Assembly: GCA_043809425.1 (NCBI GenBank)
Contig: JAZDDV010000014.1
Coordinates: forward strand, 1 to 51,077
Origin: Candidatus Micrarchaeota archaeon
GTDB lineage: Archaea > Micrarchaeota > Micrarchaeia > Anstonellales > Bilamarchaeaceae
Direction of reading: 5' to 3'
Length of the DNA stretch: 51,077 nt
Position numbers and translations under genes: made by a program. The notes beneath the pieces are model-generated. The model searched no databases. It saw only the letters and a program-made list of their open reading frames with translations, and was not told where the DNA came from. Positions 2,331 to 48,200 of the stretch are shown here, piece by piece; position 1 is the first letter of the stretch, and every line of letters begins with the position of its first letter.

Positions 2331-3512
2331 ATGAAATTTAATGAGATGAGCATAAGTGCTAGGACCCTGGCCGCGCTGACAGAGATAGGATATTTGGAAG
2401 CAACAGAGGTCCAGGCAAAGACCATACCGCTGATTCTCCAGGGCGATGACGTCATAGTCCGGAGCCAGACAGGGACGGGCAAAACTGCAGCATTCGGAAT
2501 CGGCTTCCTGGAAATAATTATGAAAGACAGGACCAGGAAAGGGCTGGTTCTTGCACCCACCAGAGAACTGGCAGTCCAGATAACAAGGGAGATCCGTTCA
2601 ATAGCTAAGAACACCAACCTGCACGTATTCGCAATCTACGGCGGGCAGGGTATGGGAGGCCAGATAGCCCTCCTTAGGAAAGGCTTTGATATTATTGTAG
2701 CAACACCCGGCCGCCTTCTGGACCACGTCCATCAGGGCACCCTGCGCCTCGAGCATATAAATTGCGTAGTCCTCGATGAGGCAGACCGCATGCTGGATAT
2801 CGGATTCAAGCCTGATATTGACAGGATAATGCGGATGGTGGATAGGGATAGCCAGGTCGTCCTCTCTTCCGCAACCATAGACTCGGCCATAAAGCAGATG
2901 GCGAAAAATTACATGGAATCTCCGAAGATTATAGAAGTAGGTCCAGTTGGCCAGGTTCAAAAGATAGAGGAAGAATTCATTACCCTCAACAGGGCTGAGA
3001 AGATGCAACACCTGAAGGAAATCCTTAGGCGTGAACCGAATTCCAGGACACTAATTTTCGTTGCCTCGAAAAGGGGCGTCGAATATGTCTGCGACAAGCT
3101 CAATGACAATCAGATAGAAGCAGGATACCTGCATGGTGGCAAAACGCAAGGTCAAAGAGAACGTGTGCTGCGCGATTTCCAGGAAGGTAGAATCATGGTG
3201 CTGGTAGCCACTGATATCGCAGCCCGTGGAATCCATGTGGAAGATATTTCCCACGTCATAAGCTACGACCGTGCTGATACGAAGGATACGCACACGCACC
3301 GCATAGGCAGGACCGGGAGGATGGGCAAGGCGGGAAAAGCGATAACATTCGTAGAAACCGACCCGATTGCGCGTGGAAGAGGCGGCGGAGGCGGACGAAA
3401 TCAAAGGGGAGGCCAGCGCAGCGGGCCACGCGGGAACTACGGCCGCGGCAAACCACAGCCTCAGCAGGGGCGCGGGCACTACAGCCGCCGGCCCACAAGG
3501 CGCAGGCATTGA
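2331..3512 (+). CDS. DEAD-box RNA helicase
   Basis: Motifs SQTGTGKT, PTRELA, TPGRL, DEAD, SAT, ARGI and HRIGRTGR; RGG-rich tail; upstream GGTGA RBS. Confidence 0.96.
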   Translation: MKFNEMSISARTLAALTEIGYLEATEVQAKTIPLILQGDDVIVRSQTGTGKTAAFGIGFLEIIMKDRTRKGLVLAPTRELAVQITREIRSIAKNTNLHVFAIYGGQGMGGQIALLRKGFDIIVATPGRLLDHVHQGTLRLEHINCVVLDEADRMLDIGFKPDIDRIMRMVDRDSQVVLSSATIDSAIKQMAKNYMESPKIIEVGPVGQVQKIEEEFITLNRAEKMQHLKEILRREPNSRTLIFVASKRGVEYVCDKLNDNQIEAGYLHGGKTQGQRERVLRDFQEGRIMVLVATDIAARGIHVEDISHVISYDRADTKDTHTHRIGRTGRMGKAGKAITFVETDPIARGRGGGGGRNQRGGQRSGPRGNYGRGKPQPQQGRGHYSRRPTRRRH

Positions 3513-3568: not shown

Positions 3569-4381
3569 ATGCCTCCAGAATTAAAGGTTCCAAACAGGGA
3601 AGAAATCGTTCAAGAACGGCAAAGGCGAACCGAAATAGTCCAGATACTGATAAAAGACGTGATGGATCTGAAAACTGAGATCCTAATGGTAATGGACCGG
3701 CTTAGTGGAAAATTAAAAGAAGACGATGACCCCAAAATAAGAAAGATGTTCAGAGGTGTGACTGACCTGCATGCTTCGCTAAATTCGCTTACCAACAAAC
3801 TCATCATTAATGAGAAAGATGCAGCTGCCAAATACAGCTTAACTTCAAATGACAGCCTGGAGGACTTTGACGGCAGGATGAACAAATATATTGACACAAT
3901 CAGCCAGGCCCGCAGGGAGCTTAAAAAGCTAACAGAAACCACGGATAGTGCCCTTGGCGTGGTGCCTGTCAAGACCAGGGAAACGCGCAGCCCTCAGGAA
4001 ATCTATGACCAGACTCTGGACAGGACCAGGAAACTGGCAAATAAGGCCGGAACCGTATTGGATAAAATCAATGAACTCATAGTTGACATTGAGAAGAAGC
4101 TGGCTACTGCCAAAAAGAAAAAGGATAGTGGGGAAGTGGAAAATCTGGAAGGTGAGATTGCCAACTACAGAAAAGCCAGGGATTTCCTTGATAAGAATAC
4201 TACTGCCATCATGCGCTTTGCATTCGGCGAGGCGGAAGATGGTAGAGGATTGCTTGACGTTATAACGAAACGGCTGCGTAATAGGGATGCGGCAATGCTA
4301 GTAATCGCAAATGAACAGAACAAAAAGCTTGACAATTTTGAGGCTATCCTGAAGGGCGTTGCCAAGAATTATATGAACTAA
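3569..4381 (+). CDS. hypothetical coiled-coil protein
   Basis: 270-aa highly charged helical ORF; no motif recognised. Confidence 0.7.
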   Translation: MPPELKVPNREEIVQERQRRTEIVQILIKDVMDLKTEILMVMDRLSGKLKEDDDPKIRKMFRGVTDLHASLNSLTNKLIINEKDAAAKYSLTSNDSLEDFDGRMNKYIDTISQARRELKKLTETTDSALGVVPVKTRETRSPQEIYDQTLDRTRKLANKAGTVLDKINELIVDIEKKLATAKKKKDSGEVENLEGEIANYRKARDFLDKNTTAIMRFAFGEAEDGRGLLDVITKRLRNRDAAMLVIANEQNKKLDNFEAILKGVAKNYMN

Positions 4382-4445: not shown

Positions 4446-5126
4446 TCAGGATGCAAGAGAAAGCAGCAGCTTCTTGTGTTTCTGGAAAACGGCTTCATCC
4501 AGATAGCCATAAACCCCCTGCAGGTTGTCCTTGAACCTGGCAGACGAAACTTCAGCCTCTATTTTCCTGAAAGCAGCTGCAAAGTCCGTATGTTTGGCTA
4601 TTTCCTGCTTCATCCAGGCAAAATCTTCAACCTTGCCTGCCATCATGAATACGTCTCTGATGTCTGTTTTTCTTGCGCAGACGAACTTCATCACAAAAAG
4701 GGCGTCTGCGTTTATCACGCGCAGGCCAAGCCTTTCTGTTATCGTCTTGCCTGTAAAATTCATTTTCCTGGAATTCCTGAAAATCCAGTCAGCTGTGAAA
4801 GTGGCGCCGGATTGCCGGTCGTAAACACCATCGATCAGCAGATCAACGCTTGTTTCAATATCTTTTTCCAGGATCTTTACATATCTTTTGAACTTTCCGC
4901 CGTAGGGAAGGCCTACTGCATACTTTGCCTCCGAATAGCCGGCTTTCTGCAATGCAGCGCTTATGCTTGTTACTTTATTCGCATAGGCAACAATATCGCA
5001 GTCAACTGAAAACCCGGGCAGGGCATAGGCATTGACGGCGTAGCCGCCTATGAGCACAAAGTCTACTCCGTGCAGCATTTTCAGGGTTTCAAAAATCTCC
5101 TTCTCACGCAGCTGAAGTCTTTCCAT
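4446..5126 (-). CDS. nucleotidyltransferase (AbiEii-like / DNA pol-beta superfamily), putative type IV TA toxin
   Basis: LIGGYAV...SVDCD motif and C-terminal K...R.TD.RD motif; overlaps the upstream regulator gene. Confidence 0.75.
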   Translation of the reverse strand: MERLQLREKEIFETLKMLHGVDFVLIGGYAVNAYALPGFSVDCDIVAYANKVTSISAALQKAGYSEAKYAVGLPYGGKFKRYVKILEKDIETSVDLLIDGVYDRQSGATFTADWIFRNSRKMNFTGKTITERLGLRVINADALFVMKFVCARKTDIRDVFMMAGKVEDFAWMKQEIAKHTDFAAAFRKIEAEVSSARFKDNLQGVYGYLDEAVFQKHKKLLLSLAS

Positions 5127-7685: not shown

Positions 7686-8258
7686 GTGAGCAAAATGGAT
7701 GCGATATTAGCTTCGTTAAGAAAATCTGACCGCGCTGCCTTTAGGACAAGGGAGTATGCCGGCCTCCTGGGAAAGCGCAGCTATGCCCGCCTAGTCCTGC
7801 ACCGGTTAAAGAAGAAAGGAGAGATAATGCGCGTACGAAACGGCTGGTGGGCGTTCAGCGATTCAATTCCGGAAGCCATAGCATGCGAAATATCAGCTCC
7901 TGCTTACGTATCATTCCATTCTGCGCTCTTTCTTCATGGCCTTACGACTCAGACTCCTAGAAATGTCCAGCTTGCAGTCACAAGAAATGCAAGAAAATAT
8001 AGGATTTCAGGGATTGAAGTCAGGGAATACAAAATAGGGAAAATGCAATTCGGGGATTTCTACCGCAAGGATTCAGTACTGCTTGCCAATCCTGAGAAGG
8101 CATTTGCCGACTGCCTGGAACTGCCCAGGTCCTGTCCGGACATCATCCTTCAGGAAGCTGCAGGAAGCGTTAATCTCGGAAAGGTGAAAACTTTTCTTGT
8201 TTCAAAAGCAGCCCTGAAGAGGCTGCAAAAGGTGATGGCGTATGTTAAACAGAAATGA
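7686..8258 (+). CDS. AbiEi-family antitoxin / transcriptional regulator
   Basis: wHTH N-terminus (LHRLKKKGEIMRVRNGW), PAYVSFHSALFLHGL and ANPEKAFADCL motifs. Confidence 0.85.
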   Translation: MSKMDAILASLRKSDRAAFRTREYAGLLGKRSYARLVLHRLKKKGEIMRVRNGWWAFSDSIPEAIACEISAPAYVSFHSALFLHGLTTQTPRNVQLAVTRNARKYRISGIEVREYKIGKMQFGDFYRKDSVLLANPEKAFADCLELPRSCPDIILQEAAGSVNLGKVKTFLVSKAALKRLQKVMAYVKQK

Positions 8259-8997
8259 GCTGGTGCGCTACGGCCCACCCGGGTTCCATGATGCACAAAA
8301 GGAAAAGGACTATGCGCAGCACTGGATGCTTTCTTTCCTGTCCCGTGCAGGCTTTGGTGCAGTATTCAAGGGCGGGACAGCACTTCAGAAAGTATACGGG
8401 CTGCCGAGGTATTCAGAAGACCTGGATTTTACGCTTAACGACGCAACTGAGCCGGACTATGAGGCCCTGGCAGCTTTCCTTGATTCAGGCGGTTTTTCCG
8501 GGCTAAACTGGAAAAAGGAAACTGATGAACGTGCTGTAAAAGCCAGGCTGCGTTTCCGCGGCCCTCTTTACAACGGCTCGGCCATAAGTGAGGGCGTGAT
8601 CAGACTGAAAATGAGCAGACGGGAGAAAACCATCCTTGAGCCGGCAGTGGCGATGATAACGCCGCCTTACCCGGACCTGCTGCCCTACCAATTCAGGGTC
8701 ATGGACAAAAATGAGATGGCTACAGAGAAAGTAAGAGCAATCATGACAAGGACTTCGGCAAGGGATTTGTTTGATCTTTATTTCCTCTTCCATCAGAAAG
8801 CCGGGTTGAAGATGGATGTGGTCACTGCAAAACTTGGGTACTACGGCCTTTCCTTCGATTACAGGACATTTGAGAAAAAGGTTGAAGAGCTGAAGGCCGT
8901 GTGGAAAAAGGAGATGACGGCCCTTACGTCCAATCCGGTTGAATACGAAACGGCAGCTAAAGCAGCCCTGGCAGCAGTTAAGAAAGACCTTTCGTGA
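8242..8997 (+). CDS. AbiEii/AbiGii-family nucleotidyltransferase toxin
   Basis: EKDY, FKGGTAL, RYSEDLDF, EKVRA and RDLFDL motifs. Confidence 0.9.
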   Translation: MLNRNELVRYGPPGFHDAQKEKDYAQHWMLSFLSRAGFGAVFKGGTALQKVYGLPRYSEDLDFTLNDATEPDYEALAAFLDSGGFSGLNWKKETDERAVKARLRFRGPLYNGSAISEGVIRLKMSRREKTILEPAVAMITPPYPDLLPYQFRVMDKNEMATEKVRAIMTRTSARDLFDLYFLFHQKAGLKMDVVTAKLGYYGLSFDYRTFEKKVEELKAVWKKEMTALTSNPVEYETAAKAALAAVKKDLS

Positions 8998-9194
8998 ATT
9001 TATTCAGGAGTGAGCCAGGTTGCGCACCTGCTTTCGTTGAATGCCGCTCAACGAATTAAAGCAATAAACCTTACTAAAGTTAAACTCTAGTTTAGGATTA
9101 GTAAGGATTCGACGGAGTGTCTTTTCGCCTCTAACTTTCCGCGTTTCTTGATAATCCGAACGTTTTGTGGGATATATAGAAAGCATCCCTTGTA

Positions 9195-9225
9195 CAACTA
9201 CTAATTTGACATTCATTAGTAGTTG
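9195..9225. promoter_or_regulatory. palindrome CAACTACTAAT-9nt-ATTAGTAGTTG, related to the two elements upstream of fic
   Basis: Perfect 11-bp inverted repeat; 9181-9221 is near-identical to 10812-10852. Confidence 0.7.
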
Positions 9226-9267
9226 CCAAAAGAGAATAGCTGATGCTAATCTTTAATTTAAAAAAAC

Positions 9268-9299
9268 AAAATTAGAAGAAATGAAAGAGAAATGCAGCG
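9268..9299 (-). repeat. duplicate of the 23S rRNA trailer (32 bp exact)
   Basis: AAAATTAGAAGAAATGAAAGAGAAATGCAGCG is identical to 10975-11006. Confidence 0.9.
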
Positions 9300-9302
9300 A
9301 AT

Positions 9303-9405
9303 GTTGAGCCATCGGCTCAACTGATGAGCTTGCCTTTTGAGCAAGCTCACGATGTTGGAGCCGCTTCAGGCGACTCAACAGTTGAGCTTGTTCCGCAAGC
9401 TCAGC
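9303..9405. repeat. cluster of four related hairpins (TGAGC...GCTCA core)
   Basis: Stems at 9303-9321, 9325-9349, 9353-9380 (imperfect) and 9381-9405. Confidence 0.8.
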
Positions 9406-9475
9406 ATGGTGAGAGCGAGTTTGGAATAAACCTTTAGTGACTGCAGACTGAACAGCTCGCTTGTGCTTACTGCTT
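9406..9475 (-). repeat. 70-bp duplicate of the 23S rRNA 3' end and processing-stem arm
   Basis: 68/70 identical to 11008-11077; supplies the fic stop codon. Confidence 0.93.
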
Positions 9476-10810
9476 TGGGCTGTTAAACGCACCGGCGTGC
9501 ATGCATTTGTCCTTATCCAACCTGAAGATAAACTGTTTTCCTTTAGAGAAGGTTTGTAGATAACCCTGTTTTACCAAGCCCAAAAGGTCTGTTCTTGCAG
9601 TTTCATAGGTAATATGGTAACGTTCTTGCATTTCTAGTATAGTCATAGGCCGTTCGTCTTTGCTCATGCTGATAAGTATGTCAGCCTGACGGAAATTCAA
9701 TTTGGGGTTTTGCTGTATAATCTCAAACATCTTCCTATTTTCAGCCTTGGTTTTAGAGATGTAGTTTTCGAATGACGTCACGGCAATGTCAAGCGCGCGT
9801 AAATTAAATTTTACAAAATAGGTAACATCGTTATTGTCTGTTTCAGAGTAGAGATACGCGCGTGCATACTGGGCAGACGCATTTTTTATAGCTGTGGATA
9901 CCGCGACATATTCGAGATAATCATACTTTTGCGCCATCAGGTACCAGTAGAACAGTGCTCTCGCGGTCCGCCCGTTTCCATCATTGAAGGGATGGATATA
10001 ACCAATCATATAGTGGAGTACAATTGCCTTGACAAAGGGATGTAGGTAATAGCTGTCAGAGTCGGCGTTATTCACGAAATTACAAACTTGTTCCAGTAAC
10101 TGATTGATTTTTTTGTAGTCAGGCGGATCATAAACGATCTGATCTTCACCTTTGGCGTATACCTTCACCTCATTATCCGTTCTAAACGTTCCTTCGTATT
10201 CTTTATTTTCAAGGGTATCTTTAGTGATTTTCCTGTGAATTTCCTTAATGAAACCTAATGTTAATTTCTGGTTCGTCACCACATTCTCTTTGACATACAT
10301 CATGGTAACGTAGTTATTCACTATCATCTGCTCCGAATGATTGCGCGGCTTCCTGTTTTCCCTTAGCATTTTTTTGGCAGCTACCCGGCTTGTAGCTGCG
10401 CCCTCCAATTGACTGGAGGCGATTGCTTCCTCCATCAATGAATTTACAAGGTATTTTTTCTGCAGTTCTGGCCCCGGCATCTGGGCTTCCAGACCGATTT
10501 TACCACCTACACGTATATCCAAATCATGAAGCGCTTTCTCAATTTGAGGCGTCTGAACGTATTGTAGTGTTACTCCGTTGAGTTTAATTGGCCTATTGCT
10601 GAATCCTCTAAAAAATTTAATATAGCTCCACAACAGTTTAAGATCGACTCCCTTGAACCTATCGTCGACTTGTAATTCATCCCAGTGCAGATAATTGGTA
10701 TTAACTATGCTAAAATAATGTTTAAGCCCATCAAGAGCATTAATATCTGGATTTTGTATGAATAACTGTCTGATTTCCTCTTCGGAAGGGGGTTTTTTAG
10801 GAATTCTCAT
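9467..10810 (-). CDS. Fic-domain protein with inhibitory helix and C-terminal wHTH
   Basis: Canonical HPFNDGNGRTAR motif; SSQLEG inhibitory motif; C-terminal ITYETARTDLLGLVKQGYL wHTH. ATG at 10810 preferred over TTG at 10828. Confidence 0.92.
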   Translation of the reverse strand: MRIPKKPPSEEEIRQLFIQNPDINALDGLKHYFSIVNTNYLHWDELQVDDRFKGVDLKLLWSYIKFFRGFSNRPIKLNGVTLQYVQTPQIEKALHDLDIRVGGKIGLEAQMPGPELQKKYLVNSLMEEAIASSQLEGAATSRVAAKKMLRENRKPRNHSEQMIVNNYVTMMYVKENVVTNQKLTLGFIKEIHRKITKDTLENKEYEGTFRTDNEVKVYAKGEDQIVYDPPDYKKINQLLEQVCNFVNNADSDSYYLHPFVKAIVLHYMIGYIHPFNDGNGRTARALFYWYLMAQKYDYLEYVAVSTAIKNASAQYARAYLYSETDNNDVTYFVKFNLRALDIAVTSFENYISKTKAENRKMFEIIQQNPKLNFRQADILISMSKDERPMTILEMQERYHITYETARTDLLGLVKQGYLQTFSKGKQFIFRLDKDKCMHAGAFNSPKQ

Positions 10811-10825
10811 GAAGCATGCCTCGAA

Positions 10826-10931
10826 CAACTACTAATTTGGCATTCATTAGTATTCATTAGTAGTTACTTGGGATATTCTATTTATAAACCTATCTACTAA
10901 TTTAGCATTCATTAGTATTCATTAGTAGTTG
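10826..10931. promoter_or_regulatory. fic promoter: TATA (TTTATAAA 10881-10888) flanked by two CTACTAAT...ATTAGTAG palindromic elements
   Basis: Two copies of CTACTAATTTrGCATTCATTAGTATTCATTAGTAGTT at ~10829-10865 and ~10895-10930. Confidence 0.7.
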
Positions 10932-11029
10932 CTAACAAACAATATGGCTCGCGCTAATTATAATTAAAAAAAATAAAATTAGAAGAAATGAAAGAGAAAT
11001 GCAGCGGATGGTGAGAGCGAGTTTGGAAT

Positions 11030-13920
11030 AAACCTTTAGTGACTGCAGGCTGAACAGCTCGCTTGCGCTTACTGCTTACACCCCAGTTCTATCAAACGGA
11101 TCTGCTATCCGCGGCTCATGCCTCCTCGTCTTGAGAATCGCTTCGACCTTAGATGCTTTCAGGTCTTATCGATGTGGCGCGTGGCTGCCCGGCAATGCAA
11201 TTCACAACCGGTAGACTAGAGGCGCCGGATCTCCGTTCCTCTCGTACTCAAAGATCCTTCCTCTCAAGAGGCAATCGCTCCCAGAAGATACTACCGTACT
11301 GTCTCGCGACGTACTGAACCCAGCTCATGTGGGATTTTAATGGATGAACAACCCAACCCTTGGTGGCTCCTGCACCACCAGGATATCCCAAGCCGACAGC
11401 GATGTACCAAACCGCGGGGTCGATGTGTACTCTCGCCCGCGACGAGCCTGTTACCTCCAGGGTAGCTTGTCTGACAGATAGAACCCTCATCAATAAGGTA
11501 TCTATGTTCGCTAAGCCCGAGTTTCCTCTCTGCATCCCACGCTTTTAGGGATACAGTCAGCCATGCATTTGTCTTTCACCCTCTACTCCGGATTTCTGAC
11601 CCGGATGAGCATAGCATTGGGCGCCCTTGTTTCCTTATCGAGGGCGTACCGCCCCAGCCGAACCGCCCACCAGACGCTGTTCCCTTGCGGGTAAGCAATA
11701 CAGATCATACAAAGTGGTGTTACACTTTCGCCTATTCACTGCCCGAAAGCAATGACATAACGGCTCCCACTTACGCTAGGTAGCACAATACGTATTACAA
11801 CATCTGACTGCGGTAAAGCTCCATGGAGTCTTCGTTTCCCTCTGGGAGTCTCCGGCATCTTCACCGGATAGTGAGTTCACCAGGTCCCAGGTAGGGACAG
11901 TGGGAAAGTCGTTACGCCATTCATGCAAGCCGCCAATTAAGCGGCGAGGTATTACGCTACCTTAAGAGGGTCAGAGTTACCCCCGCTCTTTACCAGCCCT
12001 TCTCCCGGTTGAAACCGATTTTCAGGTACTGGCAGTGGGCAGGCGTCAGCCACTATACTAAGCCTTTCGACTTTGCAGTGACTTGTGTTTTTGATAAACA
12101 GTCGCTATCCCCTTGTTACTGAGACCTCCGCATTACTCATGCGAAGGCACCCCTTATACCTAAGATACAGGGCTAACTTGCCGAGTTCCCTTACCCGAGT
12201 TCTCCTGACACATCTTAGCCTTTTCAGCTAGAGCACCTGTACTGGTTCTTGGTACGAACACACAGGATCGTTCCACGCTTCTTTTCATGGGCCCCTGGAT
12301 TTAATGGAATTATCCATTGGATTTTCGTCTGCTTCTCCTCATAATGAGACTCCACAGATCTACTATCCTCCGACGGCCGCAGCCGCTCCACCTATCCGAA
12401 GGCGCAAAGACGTGGCATGCCTTTCGGCAGCCTACCTATGTGGGGCCGGAATGTTAACCGGCTTCCCTGATTTCGCGGAGAAAGAATTACTTCTCCACTT
12501 AGGATCGCCTAACCCTCGGCTGACAAACGTTGCCGAGGAAACCTTGCTCCATAAGATGTCTAGGATTCTCACCTAGATATTGCTGTTACTGACACCAGGA
12601 TATTCATAACAGGCAGCTCCATAGGACTTCACAGCCCTACTTCTGCGCAACCCGTTCGCCCCCCTAACCCACAAGCTTTCGCTTGGGTTGGGTATCGGAA
12701 GCTAGCTTAGCCCCGGAAATCTTCAGAATCTGCACTCTCGGCCGGTCCGCTATTACGCGTTGTTTAAAGGATGGCTGCTTCTGAGCCTACCTCCCGACTG
12801 TCTTTGAATAGAGACGCTTTTGCAGTTCACACTTAGCTAGCATTTAGGGTCCTTAACCCAACGTGCGGTCAATCCCGCATAGGTGTACAAGCTTACCCCG
12901 TACACCCAACTGCCCTCTTCTACGCGGATAAAGAATTCGGAGTTTGAAAAAACGGTGATCCCTTTCGGAACCGCTCCGTCTAATCAGTGCTCTACCTCTT
13001 TATCACGCTCCAAGGACGCTGTGCTGAGACACATTTTGAGGGGAACTCGCTATTGCCGTGTTCGACAGGACTATCACCCCTACACCCAAGTCACCTAAAG
13101 GGAATATACCACCAATAGTTTCGGGCCTCCACTGACCGTCAAGCCAGCTTCGCCCTGCTCGGGAGTAGATCACAACGGCTTCGGGTCTTACAGGAGTGAC
13201 TGATCGCGAATAACCACGACGTCCCTGACACCTTGCGGTGCTGCGGACACTTGGTTTCCCTTCGGCTTTCGCCTCGCCACGCCTATAAACTCCCTGGCTC
13301 TTGCTTCGAGAAGAAAGATAAGACACCGGTTAAGCCAGGTCGTTCCATCCGTTTCCAGACTTAACTTCCCTGGCCCTATCCTTTCGTGCCTTATCCTAAT
13401 GTAACCGTCTAGTTTCAGGTCTTTTCACACTGCTTCCGCAGTTCTTTTCACCCTTTGCTCGCGCTACTAAATACACTATCGGTCTTATGCCGCATGTTTA
13501 GACTTGGAGGTTGATACCCCCATATTCATGCCCCCAATCAAGAGGACACTACTCATCAGGTTCCCTCCTTTCACCTTAATCTACGGGACTGTCACCCGCT
13601 ATGGTACGGCATTCCAGCCGACTTCGACTCAATGAAAGGATAGTACTAACCCCACCACATCTACTGTCACATTACTGCAACAGCATTCGGGACGGTCTAA
13701 CCGGCTTTCACTCGTGTTACTCGCCGGATCTCAATTGATTTCTCTTCCTTCCCCTACTAAGACGCTTCATTTCGGGGAGTTTTTGCGCTTTCCAGTTGCC
13801 CGGAAAGTGCACAGCCAATCCCTCGGATCACAACCTACATGCGGTTACCCGAGGATTATCGCAGCTTGTCGCGTGGCCGTGAGGGCATAAGCCTAGGCAT
13901 CCACTAGACGGTATAAAATA
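11030..13920 (-). rRNA. rrl: 23S ribosomal RNA (archaeal type, unlinked from 16S/5S); ends approximate
   Basis: Sarcin-ricin loop AGTACGAGAGGAAC (11235-11248, minus), peptidyl-transferase segment TGAGCTGGGTTCAGTACGTCGCGAGACAG, 5' GTGGATGCCTAGGC; ~2.9 kb. Confidence 0.97.
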
Positions 13921-13941
13921 TCTAGAATTACTCTCTAGAAC

Positions 13942-14027
13942 CCAAACTCACTTTGGAAGACTCACCATTAGAAACTAAACTCGTAGTATTAACTAAGTTT
14001 AATTTCTATAATATCTTCCGCTGCATT
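13942..14027 (-). other. 5' arm of the pre-23S processing stem
   Basis: 13961-13968 is the reverse complement of 11008-11015; 13942-13951 pairs with 11017-11026; 14017-14027 is the reverse complement of 10998-11008. Confidence 0.75.
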
Positions 14028-14156
14028 CTCTTCCACTCGACTTACTCCCCGCAAAGCGGTGAGAGAACAAGCCATCTGATGGTCTTTTCCTCAACGCGCA
14101 TGAAGCGCGCTCATTGGAATAAGCAGACGTTTGTAGCCATTATTAGGAGCATACGT

Positions 14157-25861: not shown

Positions 25862-28800
25862 TTACTGTTTTTTCATCTTGGAAATAAGTTTGTCCTTTTC
25901 TTTTGAATCCTTAAGCGCAGCCTTAAGCACTTCCACTATGCCCTTGACCGGAATGAGCTGTATTTTGTCTTTCAGTTCCGCAGACAGGTAAACGTCGTGC
26001 TTGTTGGAATCAGGTATGATGGCGCGCTTCATACCGTTTTCAATCGCAGCTTCTATCTTCGCAGTAACGCCGCCTACAGGCAGCACGCTGCCGCGGATAT
26101 CCAGCGAGCCAGTCATGGCGCAATCCTGCAGCACCGGAATGTTTGTAATCGCAGATATGACTGCTACGGCAGTTGCTATTGATGCACTGTCACCCTCAAC
26201 GCCCTCATAGGTCTGCAGAAACTGGATGTGAATGTCTTTTCGCGAAATGTCTGCACCGACGTATTTCTTGATGATGGCTGAGACATTTTCAACTGCTTCC
26301 TTTGCTATTGTCCCCAACTTACCCGTAGCAATGATCTTTCCCTCGCTCTTGGACGCAGGTGGAGTGACTTCTGCCACCATGGGCAGCAGCAATCCGGCGC
26401 GGCTGTCGCCCAACACTGCCAGGCCATTGACCCGGCCTACTTCGCTTCCGCTTGTGAGCACTATCTGATATTCGCGCCTCTGCTCTATTATCCTTGATGC
26501 GAGCTGGCTCTCAACTGGCCTGAATACTGTTTTTGCCTCAAGCACTTCTTTCTTTGTTACTACCTGCAATCCTTTGCTGCGGGCAGTGTCGCCTGCTGCG
26601 CGGACCAGGCCGCCCAGTTCTCTAAGATTAAGCGTGAATTTCTTCCTGCGGCCAGACATGCGTCTTGCCTCTTCAACTATTTCGTCCACTGCATCCATCA
26701 AAAAGTGCGGAATTTTGCCGTCTTTCTTCACTTCCTGCGCTATGAACTGAATAAGCTTTGCCTCATTTGCCGGCGTGTCGTCCATGCTGTCTTCGACGTA
26801 AATCTCATAGCCGGCGCCTCTAATGCGCGAACGGAGAGCAGGATGAATCTTCTGCATGTCTGGCAGATTGCCCGCAGCAACTAGCACGAAATCAGAAGGC
26901 ACTGCCTGGGATTTTACCAGCGCGCCTGAACTCATTTCACTCTGGCCCGTAATGGTATATTTCTTTTCCTGCATTGCCGTAAGCAGCTCCTGCTGCCAAT
27001 TAAGCTTTAGCGATGCGATTTCATCTATGAATAGCACGCCCTTGTTTGCCCGATGGATTGCTCCTGCTTCAACACGCAGATGGGCCGGCGTACCGAGTCC
27101 TCCCGAATTATGGGTGAGGACATTATTGACAAGATAGTTGCCTGTTTCGGTGGTGAGATTATAGACATAACCGGAATAGTTTTTCTTTTTTATGCTCGTT
27201 ATCTTATCGAAAGAATACGAACCATCTGAAATATTCTTCAATCTGAAGAGGTCTGGACAATTCGTATGGGTCAGCAGCTTAAGACAGATAGAAGAGAGAA
27301 ATTGTCTGGTAAGGTTTTGAGACGAGCTCAAGCCAGGTTTGAGGGCATAGTAGGCATCATGCACCTTTGTCTGGCTTAGACCGGTTTTTCCGCGAATTTG
27401 TTCAAGAAATTCAAATGAAATTGGGACCTCATCATCAAATGCAACATGCGTATTCTTTGTTGATTCTAGATATCCCTTAAGATTATTTTTATGGTATGGA
27501 TTGATCGTTTTCTCATAATATTTTGAAGCAAATTCATAATTATTAAACAGCACAAATTTCTGAAGAGTCTTTTTTTCTTTTCCAAAGCCCGGGTCAATTC
27601 TTCCCTTAATCTTTGCTCTCACGCCTACTTTCAAAAATAAGGGAACAAAATCGTCAATAAGCTCTTTTGAAAAGAGCTCAAACTGGCCTTGCTTATTGAC
27701 ATAACCATCTAGGGACATGTAACTAGAGATGAAATGCGATATCTTTTCCTTATCAAGATCAAAGATGAAAGGCGGTATAGACTTGCGGTTATTTTTCTTA
27801 ACGCCCATCTCGATTAGTTTTTTTACTAGGCTTGATGAATTAACATTTAGTATCGTCGCACCGCGGTACACTCTTTTTTTGTAATTGAAATTGTTCGCTT
27901 TAAGGCAGCGTTCGATTTCATCGATTTTGAATTGTCTCTTTAACTTAAAACCTACCGTTCTTGGCCCAAAATAGCCATCCGCAAGAAGATAAGCGACAAA
28001 CGTTATGAAATTCAGATCACTACTGGTTGTCTTACAAATGGGTAATCTATAGGGTAAAACCAAAGATGCATCTTGGTCTATTCTTTCAGCTTCCATATAC
28101 CCAATCGTCCCATCCGGTTTTATGATAGCTAATGGATGGTTCGGAGTAACACGGATTTTATGACCTCTCCGAGTTTCTATTTCGTATATTTGCCCTTCAA
28201 ATTTTCTTTTATATACTTTAGATACCTCTGAAGAGGTATAACAATATCGATCATCGTATCCACCGAGAATTTCAAATCTCTCTTCAGGTTTAAGTTCCTT
28301 TTCGCCTTCGCTTAAAAATTGGTCAACAAGCTCGCTTATTCTCACTGGTTTCCCATTTTTCAGATTAATAATTTCGTCTCCTGGAATACATTGTAACGGA
28401 TCATGTTTAACATCACCGAGCAAAGCGCCTGCGCGCGTGCCTGTTGCATCAACAAACGGTGCGGCATGCTTGCCCGTATTGTCCACCAGCAGCTTCGGGT
28501 CTTTTGTTTCAACAGGCATGAGCCGCCTGCCGATGCCTGCCGTTGCATTGGAAATAAGATAAAGAAAACCAAGGCCAATCACACTGGCAACTACGAACCA
28601 TTTTGCATTGTCTGAAATATTAAGCATGAAAACCACTGCATAGAGAATTACCCCGAGCAGCAGCACGATTAAAATCGGATTAAGCCCCTTGGTAACTGAT
28701 TCTGCCTCGCCTTTGAAGGACACTATTCTCCGGCCAAGGCCAGTGCCGCCGGCCAATCTGCCGCCTGGCAGCGTCTTCATCCGCTTTGCGTCTTCCTTGG

Positions 28801-29143
28801 AATAATATTTCTGCAAATCCTTGTTCTTTGAAACATAATCGTGAGTCGGATAGGTAGGCACTATGCGCACCTGCGGCTGGTTTTCATCATTCGGATTAGG
28901 ATAAACAAGCACGTCTTCCAGGTCCTCTGCAGGCATAAGCTCTGCCATGGCCTGGGCCATCATTGATTTGCCTGTACCCGGCGTGCCGATAAGCAGCACG
29001 TTTCTTTTCTGCTTTGCCGCTTTCTTCACGATTTCCACTGCCGAGTCCTGGCCGATTATCTGGTCTATGAGCTTTTCCGGGACTTTTACGTCTGCCGTGC
29101 TGGTTATGCTTGTGATTCTTGCCTTGTCCATTAATCCCACCAA
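25862..29143 (-). CDS. lonB: archaeal Lon protease (LonB) precursor containing an intein
   Basis: Walker A GTPGTGKS, two TM helices, FIDEI, catalytic GDSASI and GGVTAK. Confidence 0.95.
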   Translation of the reverse strand: MVGLMDKARITSITSTADVKVPEKLIDQIIGQDSAVEIVKKAAKQKRNVLLIGTPGTGKSMMAQAMAELMPAEDLEDVLVYPNPNDENQPQVRIVPTYPTHDYVSKNKDLQKYYSKEDAKRMKTLPGGRLAGGTGLGRRIVSFKGEAESVTKGLNPILIVLLLGVILYAVVFMLNISDNAKWFVVASVIGLGFLYLISNATAGIGRRLMPVETKDPKLLVDNTGKHAAPFVDATGTRAGALLGDVKHDPLQCIPGDEIINLKNGKPVRISELVDQFLSEGEKELKPEERFEILGGYDDRYCYTSSEVSKVYKRKFEGQIYEIETRRGHKIRVTPNHPLAIIKPDGTIGYMEAERIDQDASLVLPYRLPICKTTSSDLNFITFVAYLLADGYFGPRTVGFKLKRQFKIDEIERCLKANNFNYKKRVYRGATILNVNSSSLVKKLIEMGVKKNNRKSIPPFIFDLDKEKISHFISSYMSLDGYVNKQGQFELFSKELIDDFVPLFLKVGVRAKIKGRIDPGFGKEKKTLQKFVLFNNYEFASKYYEKTINPYHKNNLKGYLESTKNTHVAFDDEVPISFEFLEQIRGKTGLSQTKVHDAYYALKPGLSSSQNLTRQFLSSICLKLLTHTNCPDLFRLKNISDGSYSFDKITSIKKKNYSGYVYNLTTETGNYLVNNVLTHNSGGLGTPAHLRVEAGAIHRANKGVLFIDEIASLKLNWQQELLTAMQEKKYTITGQSEMSSGALVKSQAVPSDFVLVAAGNLPDMQKIHPALRSRIRGAGYEIYVEDSMDDTPANEAKLIQFIAQEVKKDGKIPHFLMDAVDEIVEEARRMSGRRKKFTLNLRELGGLVRAAGDTARSKGLQVVTKKEVLEAKTVFRPVESQLASRIIEQRREYQIVLTSGSEVGRVNGLAVLGDSRAGLLLPMVAEVTPPASKSEGKIIATGKLGTIAKEAVENVSAIIKKYVGADISRKDIHIQFLQTYEGVEGDSASIATAVAVISAITNIPVLQDCAMTGSLDIRGSVLPVGGVTAKIEAAIENGMKRAIIPDSNKHDVYLSAELKDKIQLIPVKGIVEVLKAALKDSKEKDKLISKMKKQ
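27107..28390 (-). mobile_element. intein with LAGLIDADG homing endonuclease (428 aa)
   Basis: Inserted at HDPLQ|C...THN|SGG; block B VTPNHP; AYLLADG and SYMSLDG motifs; AT-rich relative to the exteins. Confidence 0.95.
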
Positions 29144-40354: not shown

Positions 40355-42229
40355 TCAGCTGACCTGCACCTTCACGAATGCACCTGCATTGTACAGCGAC
40401 GGGTCATCGAAAGTCTGCAACACTTTCACCTTGCACGTGCCAAACACCGGGTCAGTGTAAGACGCTGTTGAGCCAGTCGTAATCTTGTCCTGAATCAATA
40501 TCAGGCCGTCCCAAGTGTTTTCGCGCACCGAGAAGATTGCTTTGTGCGTATCAGTCTCGAAACCTTCAATTCGCACAAACCAGATTGGACCGACCGGACA
40601 CTGTATAGCAGGGTAGAACCGGAAGTCAAGCATAGTAGGTTGTGCAGGAGGTGTCGCCGTAGTAGGCGTGATGTTTATTTTCGCCCACGAATTGCCAGCT
40701 GGATTATAGTAAGCCGGCATGGTCTCGTACACCTTTATCTGGTAGCGGTTGCCAGTGGAAATATTCCTGACTGCAGACCCGCCCTGCTTTATCTTTTCGT
40801 TGTTAAGCATTTGTGCTGCAACCTCATCTGCCAAATGCAGGCTCAAGTCATGGCTTGGAGTTTCGATACCATCATAAACCGCACTAATGTTTCCGTCACC
40901 CGAAAAGACAACTCCTCCGCCCGAATAGAGAACCTCTGCTGGCGGCAGTGCAGGGCTTATTGCGGCTGTCGGCACAGCGGGCTGCACCACGACCTTGGCC
41001 CAGGCGGCATTCGGATCTCCGTGCCCCAGGTATGAGTAACCGGTAGCGGTCTGCACCACTTTTATGCTGTATTTGCCGCCAGATGCATCTGGCAGGACAT
41101 TCCTTACGAAAGTCTGCCCTTCTCCGATTTTTTCCGTATAGATCGAATCACTTGTATTTCCGATTATAAGGTAGGCCTTGCGCGTATCTTTCTCAAAGTC
41201 GCGCAGGAGCATGACCAGCTCCGCACTCCCATAGAAGCTATTTAAGTAAACCAGGTCGTAGCTTGGGCTCTCGGTCGTTGCCACGTTCGGCACTATGTCA
41301 AACTTCGCCCAGGCGCCTTGGTAGTTCCCACTTAGAGCTGCTGCGCCTGCAGCCATCTTGATTAATTTTATTTGGTAGCGGTAGCCGCCGTTGCCTGAGC
41401 GCACCAGCGTCTGCCCTTCTTTTATCTTGTCATTTGCAAGCACATTACCGAGGCCATCTGTCAATGTGACGATGGCGCTGCGAGTTTCTGTTTCCAGGTC
41501 TGAAAGATATACGCGGGTGATAGCACCCCCAATATCATATTCTGTATAGTCCTGTACATAGACAACTTCGTAGTCATCGAAGTTCTGGCCGGAATTCGCC
41601 GGTTCAATCTTTATCTTAACTTTTCCCTGCGACCAGTCGTAGATTGGAAGGGAAGTCTGCATGACTGTTACCTTATAGAATTTTCCACTGAAGTTGCGGA
41701 CAACATTTGCTCCTTCCTTGACTTTTTCAATGCCATACGGCGTGCTGATTATCGCATCACGTGTTCCGACTTCAATGTCGTCAACGCTCACACCAACATT
41801 CCTGTCATTAATATAATAAATGAATAAATTTCGCGTAGTGAGCGACACGGTCACGGCGCTAACCTTAAGAGTTATGTTCGCCCAGCGGACGCCGCTTGCC
41901 GAGCTTGCCGCGGTTTCATGGACAGTTATGGAAATGTCACGGCCTGCAACGGTTTTCGTGACGGTCTTTCCCTCGGGAATCTCATCGAATGAAAGCATGT
42001 TGCCGTTATAAGACACGAGCGTTATCAGCGCGTTGTGCGTTGTCTGCTCAATATCATTCAGCACCAGCGTCAACGGCTCCACGTTATCATAGGGAAAGGT
42101 GGTGAAATTTTCACTCACGTTGACAATCTGGTTCATGCTGCCAGTGTAATAATAATCAGTTGGTGCTGCCGATGTAATCGAAACAGCCAAAATCCCAAAT
42201 ACCAAAACTAAGAATAGGTTTACTTTCAT
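40355..42229 (-). CDS. secreted six-repeat surface (S-layer-like) protein, paralog 1
   Basis: Signal peptide; six ~95-aa repeats D.E..T..A...KI.EG...Y.IKV.QT...WAK; many NxS/T sequons. Confidence 0.75.
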   Translation of the reverse strand: MKVNLFLVLVFGILAVSITSAAPTDYYYTGSMNQIVNVSENFTTFPYDNVEPLTLVLNDIEQTTHNALITLVSYNGNMLSFDEIPEGKTVTKTVAGRDISITVHETAASSASGVRWANITLKVSAVTVSLTTRNLFIYYINDRNVGVSVDDIEVGTRDAIISTPYGIEKVKEGANVVRNFSGKFYKVTVMQTSLPIYDWSQGKVKIKIEPANSGQNFDDYEVVYVQDYTEYDIGGAITRVYLSDLETETRSAIVTLTDGLGNVLANDKIKEGQTLVRSGNGGYRYQIKLIKMAAGAAALSGNYQGAWAKFDIVPNVATTESPSYDLVYLNSFYGSAELVMLLRDFEKDTRKAYLIIGNTSDSIYTEKIGEGQTFVRNVLPDASGGKYSIKVVQTATGYSYLGHGDPNAAWAKVVVQPAVPTAAISPALPPAEVLYSGGGVVFSGDGNISAVYDGIETPSHDLSLHLADEVAAQMLNNEKIKQGGSAVRNISTGNRYQIKVYETMPAYYNPAGNSWAKINITPTTATPPAQPTMLDFRFYPAIQCPVGPIWFVRIEGFETDTHKAIFSVRENTWDGLILIQDKITTGSTASYTDPVFGTCKVKVLQTFDDPSLYNAGAFVKVQVS

Positions 42230-42339
42230 ATAATCTCCCCTCTGGATTCAGCTAAGAAGAGGAGATTTAAAAGTCTTTCCGGCTGCGGAAAACAAGAGAA
42301 AAAAACAACAACGGAAAATAAAAATAAGAAAAAGAAAAA

Positions 42340-44160
42340 TCAGCTGACCTGCAGCCTTGCCCAGATGCTCTCTGCCGCGTAGGTGTAGCCGCCGGTTGTT
42401 TCCATGACCTTTATCCTGCACAGCGTGCCGCCAGCAGGAGAGATCGTAAATGTCTGGCCAACAGGAATCTTTGCCCTTTCATAAATGCTGCCACCCGGGT
42501 CAAGCACTGAAATGGCTGCTGCACCGTCTGCTTCTTCCATATCGTCCAGCCGGACATTGTATCCGGTCACAGGACAGGTAAGATACCGCTCATTTACAAG
42601 AGTAAGATTTCCCTGAACTGGTGTGACTCCGGAAGTTACCGGCTTTACGTTAAGCCTTGCCCACTTTGCGCCGAAGGTGTAGCCTGCTCCGGTCTGCAGC
42701 ACGCTTATCTGGTATTTGTTACCGTTGACATTGCGGACTACTGAACTGCCTTCCTTGACAAGGTCGCGGGACACTACCGAACCGTTTCCGGTATCGTAAA
42801 CTACAATTATTGCACCGCGAGTTTTGCTGTCCAAATCAATCAACCTTACGTTCTTGCTGCCATCAACTGGATAGAACTCGCCCTGGTTAAGCACGAAAGA
42901 GGTGTTGATAATCGGCGTAGCAGCTGCATTCGTAGGCGTTACAAGAACCTTTGCCCACTTTGCAGCGTAGGTGTAGCCTGCTGCTGTCTGCACTATCTTA
43001 ATAGAGTATTTTGTGCCGCTGACGTTGCGGACTACGCTTTGGCTTTCTGCGATCTTGTCCTTGTAGATAATGTTATCCGCTGGGTCAAGTATGGAAACCA
43101 ACGCCTTTCCTGTGCCTGATTCAAGATCATCAAGTTTCACCTTGAATCCATTGCTGAGAATATAGGATTCTCCCTGATTGAGCGTTGCGTTGATTGGGAT
43201 GACTGGAGCTGCTGTGGTTGTCGGGTCAACAGCAAACTTCACCCACTTCGCACCGAAAGTATAACCAGGCGCTGTCTGATAAACAGTTATTTTGAATTTC
43301 TGGCCGCCTATGTCTTTTATGATTGGTTTTCCTTCTGACACCTTTACCTTGAGAAGAACGTTGTCGTTTGCGTCAAGCACGCTGAAAACAGCGCTCTTGG
43401 TTCTTGGCTCCAGGTCGTCAAGCTTCAACTTGTAGGTACTGAACGGATAATTTTCCCCTTGATTGAGAACGTTATACAAGGCAGCAGGAGAGCCTGAATT
43501 AAGCTTTTCTATGCTGAGTTTTACGCGCTTTGCTCCGAACTGATAGCCTGCAGATGTCTGCAGAACCTTTATCCTATAAAGAGAACCGCTTACGTTGCGG
43601 ACTACATTCTGGCCTTCAGCGAGTTTATCTTTGGAAAGTACCGCGCCAAAGCAGTCTTCGGTACTTAGAATTGCGCTTCTTGTGCCGACTTCCAGGTCGT
43701 TAACGCGCACACACGCTGTAGAACCTGGTACGTTATAAACTGCAATTGAGTCGACATCAACAACAACAGAAACTACCTGTACGCTGATAGTCGCCCAGGA
43801 AGCGTTCTCGGCGAATTCATAGCCTGCCGCAGTCTTGCCGACAGTTATTTTATATTCTGTCGAACCCACTGTGCGGGTAATGCTTTTCCCTTCTGCGATT
43901 TCTTCCTGCAGAGGAACAAGGCTGCCAGGCGCTATAATAGAAATAAGCGCGCTGTGCGATGTCGCTTCCACATCGTCAAGCCGTAGGACTGTATTACATG
44001 GGTCGCATGGAACACTTCCGACATAGTGGTCATCCAGCGTCAGGTTTCCGCCTATATTCACCTGCTCGGTCTTATTACCGACCCATGGCTCGTAGTCCTG
44101 TGCGCAGACCATGCCAAACAGCAATCCCAATACTAATGTAAAGATTATGTTGCCTCTCAT
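42340..44160 (-). CDS. secreted six-repeat surface (S-layer-like) protein, paralog 2
   Basis: Signal peptide; six repeats, mostly ending T(A/S/G)(A/P)GY.(F/Y)..KW. Confidence 0.75.
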   Translation of the reverse strand: MRGNIIFTLVLGLLFGMVCAQDYEPWVGNKTEQVNIGGNLTLDDHYVGSVPCDPCNTVLRLDDVEATSHSALISIIAPGSLVPLQEEIAEGKSITRTVGSTEYKITVGKTAAGYEFAENASWATISVQVVSVVVDVDSIAVYNVPGSTACVRVNDLEVGTRSAILSTEDCFGAVLSKDKLAEGQNVVRNVSGSLYRIKVLQTSAGYQFGAKRVKLSIEKLNSGSPAALYNVLNQGENYPFSTYKLKLDDLEPRTKSAVFSVLDANDNVLLKVKVSEGKPIIKDIGGQKFKITVYQTAPGYTFGAKWVKFAVDPTTTAAPVIPINATLNQGESYILSNGFKVKLDDLESGTGKALVSILDPADNIIYKDKIAESQSVVRNVSGTKYSIKIVQTAAGYTYAAKWAKVLVTPTNAAATPIINTSFVLNQGEFYPVDGSKNVRLIDLDSKTRGAIIVVYDTGNGSVVSRDLVKEGSSVVRNVNGNKYQISVLQTGAGYTFGAKWARLNVKPVTSGVTPVQGNLTLVNERYLTCPVTGYNVRLDDMEEADGAAAISVLDPGGSIYERAKIPVGQTFTISPAGGTLCRIKVMETTGGYTYAAESIWARLQVS

Positions 44161-44240
44161 GGTTAGAATTAGGTGTGAAAACGTTTAAAAAGCCTTCTGA
44201 AATGTGGATGAAAGAGAAAAAATAAGAAAAAAGAAAAAAA

Positions 44241-46130: not shown

Positions 46131-46196
46131 GGATTTGCCTATGAAGACGATATTTAAAAGTCTTTCGAGAAAGCTAAAAAAGAAGAAAAGAAAAAA

Positions 46197-48119: not shown

Positions 48120-48200
48120 GGATTTGCATAAGAAGACGATATTTAAAAGTCTTTCTGGAACGGTTGAAAAATAAGTAAAAAAATAAGAAAAAAGAAAAAA

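Follow-up and report, generated by a model that had tools for sequence, protein, structure and literature searches.

How does the 3' end of a single-copy 23S ribosomal RNA (rRNA) gene come to stand twice in one genome, once at its proper place and once behind an unrelated protein gene? The question is raised by a Candidatus Micrarchaeota genome (G000; 1.18 Mb in 76 contigs, 92% complete, 2.1% contamination), whose contig C14 of 51,077 nucleotides (nt), here called the window, is examined here. Behind its 23S gene, a horizontally acquired gene of the toxin type, which encodes a Fic protein (fic), is enclosed by two same-direction copies of the 23S tail and the adjoining trailer. The explanation that we favor, with about even confidence, is that recombination through tail and trailer, carried out by the homologous recombination machinery of the host, caused this layout and that fic is cargo that landed there.

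The first point to settle is which of the two copies serves the ribosome. The 23S gene (11019 to 13929; like every part of the duplication, on the minus strand) matches the Rfam model RF02540 in full (model positions 1 to 2987, 2395.5 bits) and is the only one in the assembly, the 16S gene being located on a separate contig. It runs without interruption into the proximal tail R1 (11008 to 11077), i.e., its last 59 nt plus 11 nt of trailer. R1 is followed by the proximal trailer T1 (10934 to 11007), which consists of the 3' stem arm, a T-run, and a motif of the YAGCGNRAGCC type, is conserved in relatives, and forms the stem for pre-23S processing together with the 5' leader arm (13941 to 14038). 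Cofolding of this leader with R1-T1 yields a gain of -38.1 kcal/mol in three helices, and the stem has bulges of 3 nt on its 3' side and 11 nt on its 5' side. In two genomes of the same genus (G001 and G005), tail and trailer are conserved up to window position 10974/5 and are directly followed by truD; at both positions where R1 differs from the distal tail R2, the base of R1 is that of G001 and G005, and the R2 substitutions are hence derived. Leader pairing, conservation in these two genomes, and the shared bases together identify R1-T1 as the native, working 23S end and R2 as a spare. The target gene remains complete, and its leader-trailer stem is still predicted to form. The first-pass annotation had proposed that the insertion rebuilt this stem; a rebuilt stem and one that was never disturbed fit the data equally well. 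Since fic begins 208 nt beyond the 23S end, it is also not an open reading frame (ORF) residing in an intron or intervening sequence of the mature rRNA.

Read in the direction of the 23S gene, the order of the elements is 23S, R1, T1, operator O1, a spacer with the TATA-like element, operator O2, the fic leader, fic, R2, a hairpin insert, the distal trailer T2, and finally operator O3 with a second fic leader. R2 (9406 to 9475) equals R1 at 68 of 70 positions (97%), and a genome-wide blastn search with the 70-mer (E value of 4.9e-27) detected no further copy. Between R2 and the trailer arm lies an insert of 105 nt (9301 to 9405) composed of four hairpins in two units of about 54 nt (DNA fold z scores of -4.7 and -5.7), which is missing from the proximal copy and from G001 and G005. 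In T2 (9238 to 9300), the stem arm is preserved at 32 of 33 positions, positions 9268 to 9299 being identical to 10975 to 11006 and the next base different, while T-run and motif region agree at about 67% (31/46, counted by hand). T2 can still pair with the pre-23S leader: R2-T2 cofolds with a gain of -36.8 kcal/mol, and the hairpins form a side branch. The repeat search further aligned 9254 to 9308 with 10961 to 11015 (93%), and homology also connects 9181 to 9221 with 10812 to 10852 (90%). The latter match comprises operator and fic leader (leaders identical at 14 of 18 positions) and ends 1 nt before the position of the fic ATG. The longest exact run common to both copies is 41 nt.

The distal copy is thus terminated by a relic of the fic 5' end (9181 to 9237), with one fused operator and a leader, without TATA spacer and without an ORF. 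The operator is a palindromic element of 40 nt that occurs three times, at 9198, 10829, and 10894, and the motif is found at no other site in the genome. O3 has an upstream flank like that of O1 and a downstream leader like that of O2; as read from these flanks, it duplicates the control region of the cassette in collapsed form, placed behind the spare trailer. No remnant of a second fic ORF was found in the adjoining stretch (8990 to 9180). Because the distal copy holds operator and leader, the structure is best described as two consecutive units of tail, trailer, control region, and ORF, the second of which has lost its ORF, and not as a simple pair of attachment (att) sites. The recurrence of the 23S end with its stem arm, of the trailer, and of the operator, all of which the first-pass annotation had reported, is confirmed; the hairpin insert and the extension of the homology over operator and leader almost to the ATG are additions to it. 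The repeat is not composed of rRNA sequence alone. A third, partial copy is present on contig C1 (G000:C1:32191-32246; L003 about 3160-3260), far from any rRNA gene; it comprises one hairpin unit, trailer, and motif, has neither tail nor operator, and is intermediate between T1 and T2. Its neighbors are an HNH-like ORF and a long ORF of the secreted type.

What, then, is the cargo? The fic gene (9467 to 10810) encodes 447 amino acids from its ATG, and its product is recognized by the Pfam Fic model (74 bits against a cutoff of 24; E value of 1.8e-20). The catalytic motif H-P-F-x-D-G-N-G-R (H273 to R281) and, N-terminal of the core in the same chain, the inhibitory motif (S132 to G137) are invariant in six homologues; we take the former to be the defining Fic motif and (S/T)xxxE(G/N) to be the definition of the class II inhibitory motif. 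A profile of the family matches the chains of SoFic from Shewanella oneidensis (PDB 3eqx, 3zcn, and 9tc4) over residues 127 to 432, which cover the Fic core and the C-terminal part. By these features the protein would be a SoFic-like class II Fic protein, for which transfer of adenosine monophosphate is predicted. The relationship is distant: the E value of the match is only about 1e-13, the NCBIfam SoFic model scores 65.8 bits against a cutoff of 550, the protein has some 120 additional residues at its N terminus, and the family is archaeal with its own operators. The control region (10811 to 10933) consists of O1 (10894 to 10933), the TATA-like spacer (10869 to 10893), O2 (10829 to 10868), and the leader (10811 to 10828), and the C-terminal part of the protein, predicted to bind DNA, probably represses its own promoter. 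As the first-pass annotation had stated, fic is AT rich (G+C content of 40.6%, compared to 47.6% for the window) and takes its end from the rRNA copy: the terminal K-Q-stop lies inside R2, with the TAA at 9467 to 9469. The protein extends 10 residues beyond its last conserved residue, only the last two of them in R2, and the C-terminal tails of the homologues vary.

If the 23S end were the proper target of the fic cassette, the same association would be expected at other fic loci, but it is absent from them. Of the 175 other genomes of the order, 7 contain a close homologue (64 to 76% identity), as does one metagenome contig, and a scan of one genome per species returned 66 loci, 29 of which have 53 to 76% identity over the best segment. 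The titles of those loci name metagenome-assembled genomes (MAGs) of Micrarchaeota, Iainarchaeum, Methanoperedens, anaerobic methanotrophic archaea (ANME), and other Methanosarcinales; no fic relatives were detected on the viral contigs searched. DNA homology to the seven homologues of the order is confined to about 9500 to 10930, i.e., the ORF, the leader, and both operators, and includes neither tail nor trailer. At least two operator motifs precede fic in 24 of the 25 homologous loci with 300 nt or more upstream, and none of the loci examined (the seven of the order and about 29 from the wider scan) has a 23S tail. The contexts are at least five in number, e.g., between gyrB and a gene for 761 amino acids, or between tRNA-Tyr and the 5' side of a 16S gene; in a further one, the neighboring ORF is presumably L7Ae, to judge from its N-terminal sequence. 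In the genus of G092, a spacer of 42 to 94 nt in G101 and others takes the place of a 1,468-nt cassette in G092, with no flanking repeat or target duplication. Since fic occurs with its operators at varied sites without an rRNA tail, it represents a self-contained, horizontally moving cassette that needs no rRNA gene; on this comparative evidence, the cassette is independently mobile and does not target rRNA. Fic cassettes with operators (L095-L119) are common to DPANN MAGs and many MAGs of Methanoperedens, ANME, and GoM-Arc1 at 64 to 70% identity, which suggests gene flow between phyla.

Direct repeats of other kinds bracket fic in 6 of 24 other loci, and we derive no mechanism from them. In the Methanosarcinaceae MAG G176 (L101, L160-L162), fic lies between two 83-nt copies (93%) of a dispersed repeat that occurs in at least eight places, between pairs of small toxin-antitoxin-like ORFs, and forms no hairpin. 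The bracketing repeat of L098 has a third copy elsewhere, and a suspected origin from cobQ could not be confirmed. At L114, a 107-nt direct repeat (645 to 751 and 4791 to 4897; 94%) encloses a segment of 4.1 kb, begins at the 3' end of a tRNA-Ser gene, and recurs just upstream of the fic operators; the close relative G186 lacks both the second copy and fic, but it is not a clean empty site. The metagenome contig L090 carries four copies of an intergenic repeat of 50 to 80 nt around fic and its neighbor (196 to 274, 428 to 454, 2901 to 2956, and 3976 to 4055). A fic contig of G130 was considered as a second case of a tail next to fic and rejected; the contig ends 239 nt after fic, and its end is unrelated to the 23S tail of G130.

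The cassette being independent of the site, the remaining question is whether the site is special. With the tail of G000 as the query, 81 other genomes of the order gave a match to the 23S end and none a second copy, but such a search is blind to copies made up mainly of lineage-specific trailer. It was therefore replaced by a survey within this single archaeal order, in which up to 10 kb behind the 23S genes of 83 relatives were searched, each with its own tail (-60 to +200 relative to the 23S end). Downstream sequence of 1.5 kb or more was available at 78 of these 83 loci, and 8 of the 78 gave a match at an E value of 1e-3. Counting as copies only matches on the same strand, of at least 41 nt and at least 90% identity, left spare tails in five relatives; a tandem repeat inside the trailer (G020), a 36-nt match of 86% abutting the query (G035), and an inverted match of 27 nt (G033) were dropped. 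In G049, -9 to 51 recurs at 648 to 709 (95%); in G051, -8 to 49 at 192 to 249 (100%, with no ORF in between); in G122, 43 to 83 at 988 to 1028 (97.6%); and in G130, 11 to 64 at 3687 to 3739 (90.7%). G110 has three copies, at 882, 2548, and 4244 (91 to 95%), and thus an array of three cassettes. As a control, 189 pieces of 260 nt were drawn from the same downstream regions, at distances of 2.5, 5, and 7.5 kb from the 23S gene; the only one with a copy turned out to be a spare tail of G110. According to a hand calculation, all five hits would lie in the 78 tails by chance with a probability of about 0.002, a value that overstates the significance because the genomes are related.

Two of these loci are especially informative. 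G049 and its sister G052 form a clean filled/empty pair, in which downstream synteny is shifted by about 640 nt, corresponding to an orphan ORF of 111 amino acids and one copy of the trailer, and the two copies in G049 continue like alleles of two different sisters. The cargo of G110 consists of four lipoprotein-like ORFs, three of which are 26 to 31% identical; two of the ORFs (157-888 and 1070-2551) end in stop codons that extend the reading frame 7 and 4 nt into the tail behind them. Besides the T-run and the motif, every copy holds a TATA box as well as a ribosome-binding site for the gene that follows. Judged from this distribution, the 23S tail is a recurrent duplication and insertion point, and it is the site that recurs and not the fic unit. 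The duplication described by the first-pass annotation thus reappears behind other 23S genes of the order (5/78, compared to 1/189 controls), which lends support to its idea of the 23S end as a recombination site; the notion of a dedicated unit fails, because the fic cassette is found elsewhere without a tail. The YAGCGNRAGCC-type motif (window 10934-10960 and 9238-9260; L230, L248, L177, L204, and L205) is located behind the T-run both in the 23S trailers of various genera, among them those of G130, G110, G049, G052, and G048, and in the spare copies of these trailers; it could form a small tetraloop hairpin.

The analysis establishes the anatomy of the locus, which of the two tails works, that the cassette moves on its own, and that relatives have spare tails as well; the recombination route and the sufficiency of host homologous recombination are our inference. 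The 23S tail with its trailer would be a recombination-prone insertion point in small archaea, and fic would be cargo. DNA with the order 23S end, trailer, and fic cassette would have entered the resident locus by recombination at the 23S end and trailer that both had in common, either by a single crossover of a circular copy, by unequal crossing-over, or by means of the 23S gene as a homologous anchor combined with an illegitimate join 59 nt before the 23S end. Any of these routes would leave two same-direction copies of the tail, the proximal one joined to the 23S gene as processing arm and the distal one as a spare. The repeats, 70 plus 63 nt in the same direction at 97% identity, are long enough for homologous recombination. 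Since the distal copy carries the fused operator and leader, at least two rounds would have taken place, or a duplication followed by the loss of the second ORF. Today fic draws on the spare copy for its two final codons and its stop and for a T-run as terminator. No integrase, transposase, or recombinase families were found in the 39 ORFs of the window (51 kb), in agreement with the first-pass annotation, nor in 11 cargo ORFs of the relatives.

Several observations weigh against this explanation. None of the public sequencing runs covers the whole stretch (shares of at most 0.08), and all genomes compared are metagenome assemblies, of which related ones are non-independent samples. Divergence between the copies is uneven, with 3 differences in the 103 nt of tail and stem arm compared to 19 in the 64 nt of T-run, motif region, and leader (Fisher's P value of 1e-6), a pattern consistent with two alleles that had diverged, with gene conversion, or with some function of the spare, and less so with plain decay. 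In G110, the copies also bring along promoter and ribosome-binding site of the following gene, and three cargo ORFs are old paralogues, so that gene-family duplication with conserved upstream regions may explain part of the pattern. All spare tails have their left edges in the interval from -59 to +43 relative to the 23S end (-59, -23, -9, -8, +11, and +43), and this clustering could indicate a defined cut site. Finally, G000 contains three tyrosine recombinase (PF00589) genes, on contigs C68, C62, and C22.

The last two points lead to the alternative that survives best, although we consider it unlikely: a recombinase encoded elsewhere would recognize a core site in the 23S trailer and insert circular cassettes, by analogy with integrases at the ends of tRNA genes or integron integrases at attI/attC, and the spare tails would be att sites. 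It would account for edges that in six genomes stay within some 100 nt of the 23S end, for tails that are 91 to 97% identical while the cargo is unrelated or only 26 to 31% identical, and for cargo stop codons that, in G000 and G110, touch or run into the tail behind them. The trans-acting recombinase that the first-pass annotation had considered would have candidates in the three PF00589 genes, yet there is no recombinase beside any of the six spare-tail loci. A site-specific enzyme is also difficult to reconcile with edges that differ by genome and define no shared core site, with the inclusion of the cassette operator and leader in the G000 repeat, and with the insertion of the same fic cassette elsewhere without any repeat.

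A purely local tandem duplication from the 23S end to the end of fic, by slippage or unequal crossing-over and unrelated to the acquisition, followed by loss of the second ORF and leaving a functionless scar, appears rather improbable. The unit-unit layout with operator and leader in the distal copy is just what it would produce, the single fused operator is the expected product of a deletion between O1 and O2, and in G051 a second copy of the trailer stands 200 nt from the first, without an ORF in the interval. Yet such a scar should not have retained tail and stem arm far better than the remainder of the distal copy, and the loss of the ORF ends 1 nt from the ATG. Moreover, the comparison of G049 with G052 documents a foreign ORF gained along with a trailer copy, and the sister-allele-like continuations of the two G049 copies do not conform to a local event.

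It is very improbable that the spare tail has been kept for a function in RNA, either as an alternative 3' arm for the leader upon read-through of fic or as the 3' end or terminator of the fic mRNA. The distal copy pairs with the leader nearly as well as the proximal one, its stem arm is identical at 32 of 33 positions, and the copies in G110 hold terminator, TATA box, and ribosome-binding site. On the other hand, R2 has two derived changes, and in a run from another sample (X1), the distal tail shows 6 differences over 70 positions, three of them 1-nt gaps, and is therefore drifting. An RNA joint from 9459 to 11140 in run X5, considered as a splice, was rejected, because it stems from a 23S contig, the end of which had been placed on the distal tail and not on the proximal one.

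An assembly artefact that joined the 23S flanks of two strains is hardly credible, in spite of the 76-contig metagenome assembly with its 2.1% contamination and of copies that resemble diverged alleles, because assemblers join at shared words, of which the fic 3' end has none in common with the 23S interior, so that a word-based assembler could not create the joint between fic and R2, because the longest exact run common to the two tail copies measures 41 nt, and because an independent 174-nt contig from run X1 (depth of 2.4) spans insert, R2, and the fic 3' end (9379 to 9555) with 10 substitutions and 3 gaps relative to the window. Four runs examined at the locus gave only short contigs, mostly from 23S genes of other organisms.

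A broader and decidedly speculative version of recombination at the tail and trailer can be formulated, to which we assign a low probability. The 23S end may be a docking site of gene capture without a resident integrase in distant archaeal phyla, with each gene closed by a fresh tail that is kept as a recombination site and as a module of terminator and promoter. The catalyst would be a trans-acting recombinase or breakage and repair at the heavily transcribed end of the rRNA gene.

The region behind the 23S gene is accessory DNA. No synteny was found between the region behind the 23S gene of G000 and that of the same-genus genomes, in which TruD follows the trailer; in G000, truD is located on contig C66 behind other genes. 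Downstream of O3, about 180 nt without a gene are followed by an AbiEii/AbiEi pair (7686 to 8997, plus strand) that converges on the spare tail; the AbiEii toxin is supported by Pfam (1.4e-24), and the AbiEi-like antitoxin matches an NCBIfam model at 2e-05, below its cutoff. The 23S genes of relatives contain insertions of intron-like appearance (L024, L027, L028, and L029), of about 700 nt in G001 and G022 at the equivalent of window position 11960 or so and several smaller ones in G004 and G006. Elsewhere in the window, on the minus strand, an archaeal LonB protease gene (25862 to 29143) is interrupted by an intein (Pfam Intein_splicing, 2.4e-20), and five adjacent ORFs of 606 to 640 amino acids without a Pfam family (40355 to 50081) have the look of a paralogue array.

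How does the locus compare with known systems? The ends of tRNA genes are well-known hot spots of integrase-dependent insertion, and the genomic islands at the 3' ends of tRNA and tmRNA genes include tandem or "additive" ones. The layout described here shares with them the insertion behind a stable-RNA gene that remains intact, the same-direction repeats of the gene's 3' end, and the stacking of cassettes by repeated events, as in G110. It differs in the target, i.e., the 23S tail and trailer, in the lack of an integrase in or beside the insert, in the variable edges of the repeat, and in the presence of cargo sequence in the repeat of G000. Ghaly et al. reportedly described archaeal integrons in 2022. 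Like integron cassettes or clusters of attC sites lacking integron-integrases (CALIN), the loci consist of single ORFs, with or without a promoter, and a conserved repeat stands behind every one of them; cargo of the toxin type is frequent, and arrays form at one site. In contrast, the repeat is an rRNA tail and not a folded attC, no IntI-type integrase is present in the window, and the 105-nt insert, judged by its fold, consists of four separate hairpins and not of the single imperfect hairpin of attC. A match of the hairpin arms to the degenerate integron core-site consensus was judged to be due to chance, the arms being each other's reverse complement.

Two further systems concern the mechanism. 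Homology-facilitated illegitimate recombination is said to have been described by de Vries and Wackernagel in 2002 for the natural transformation of bacteria. A 23S anchor combined with an illegitimate join would leave the resident tail as a spare and explain diverged tandem alleles. In Campylobacter coli, circle formation and transfer mediated by repeats were shown experimentally for the pcp-flanked cfr(C) unit (PMC10770853). The two cases agree in a cargo between two same-direction copies of host sequence, in the dispensability of a dedicated recombinase, and in a predicted circle of cargo plus one repeat; the Campylobacter unit is bacterial with repeats derived from a protein gene, and the archaeal case is known from its static layout alone. 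A word search of the open-access literature returned no description of spare 23S tails that bound inserted genes.

If our explanation is correct, the end of the rRNA gene as an integrase-less hot spot would provide very small archaeal genomes with a further route to gain and swap accessory genes. Each such event would put the processing signal of an essential gene at stake, in genomes with a single rRNA gene. In addition, a single Fic cassette, predicted to be autoregulated, is common to DPANN archaea and methane-cycling Methanosarcinales, which bears on gene flow between symbiont-type and free-living archaea.

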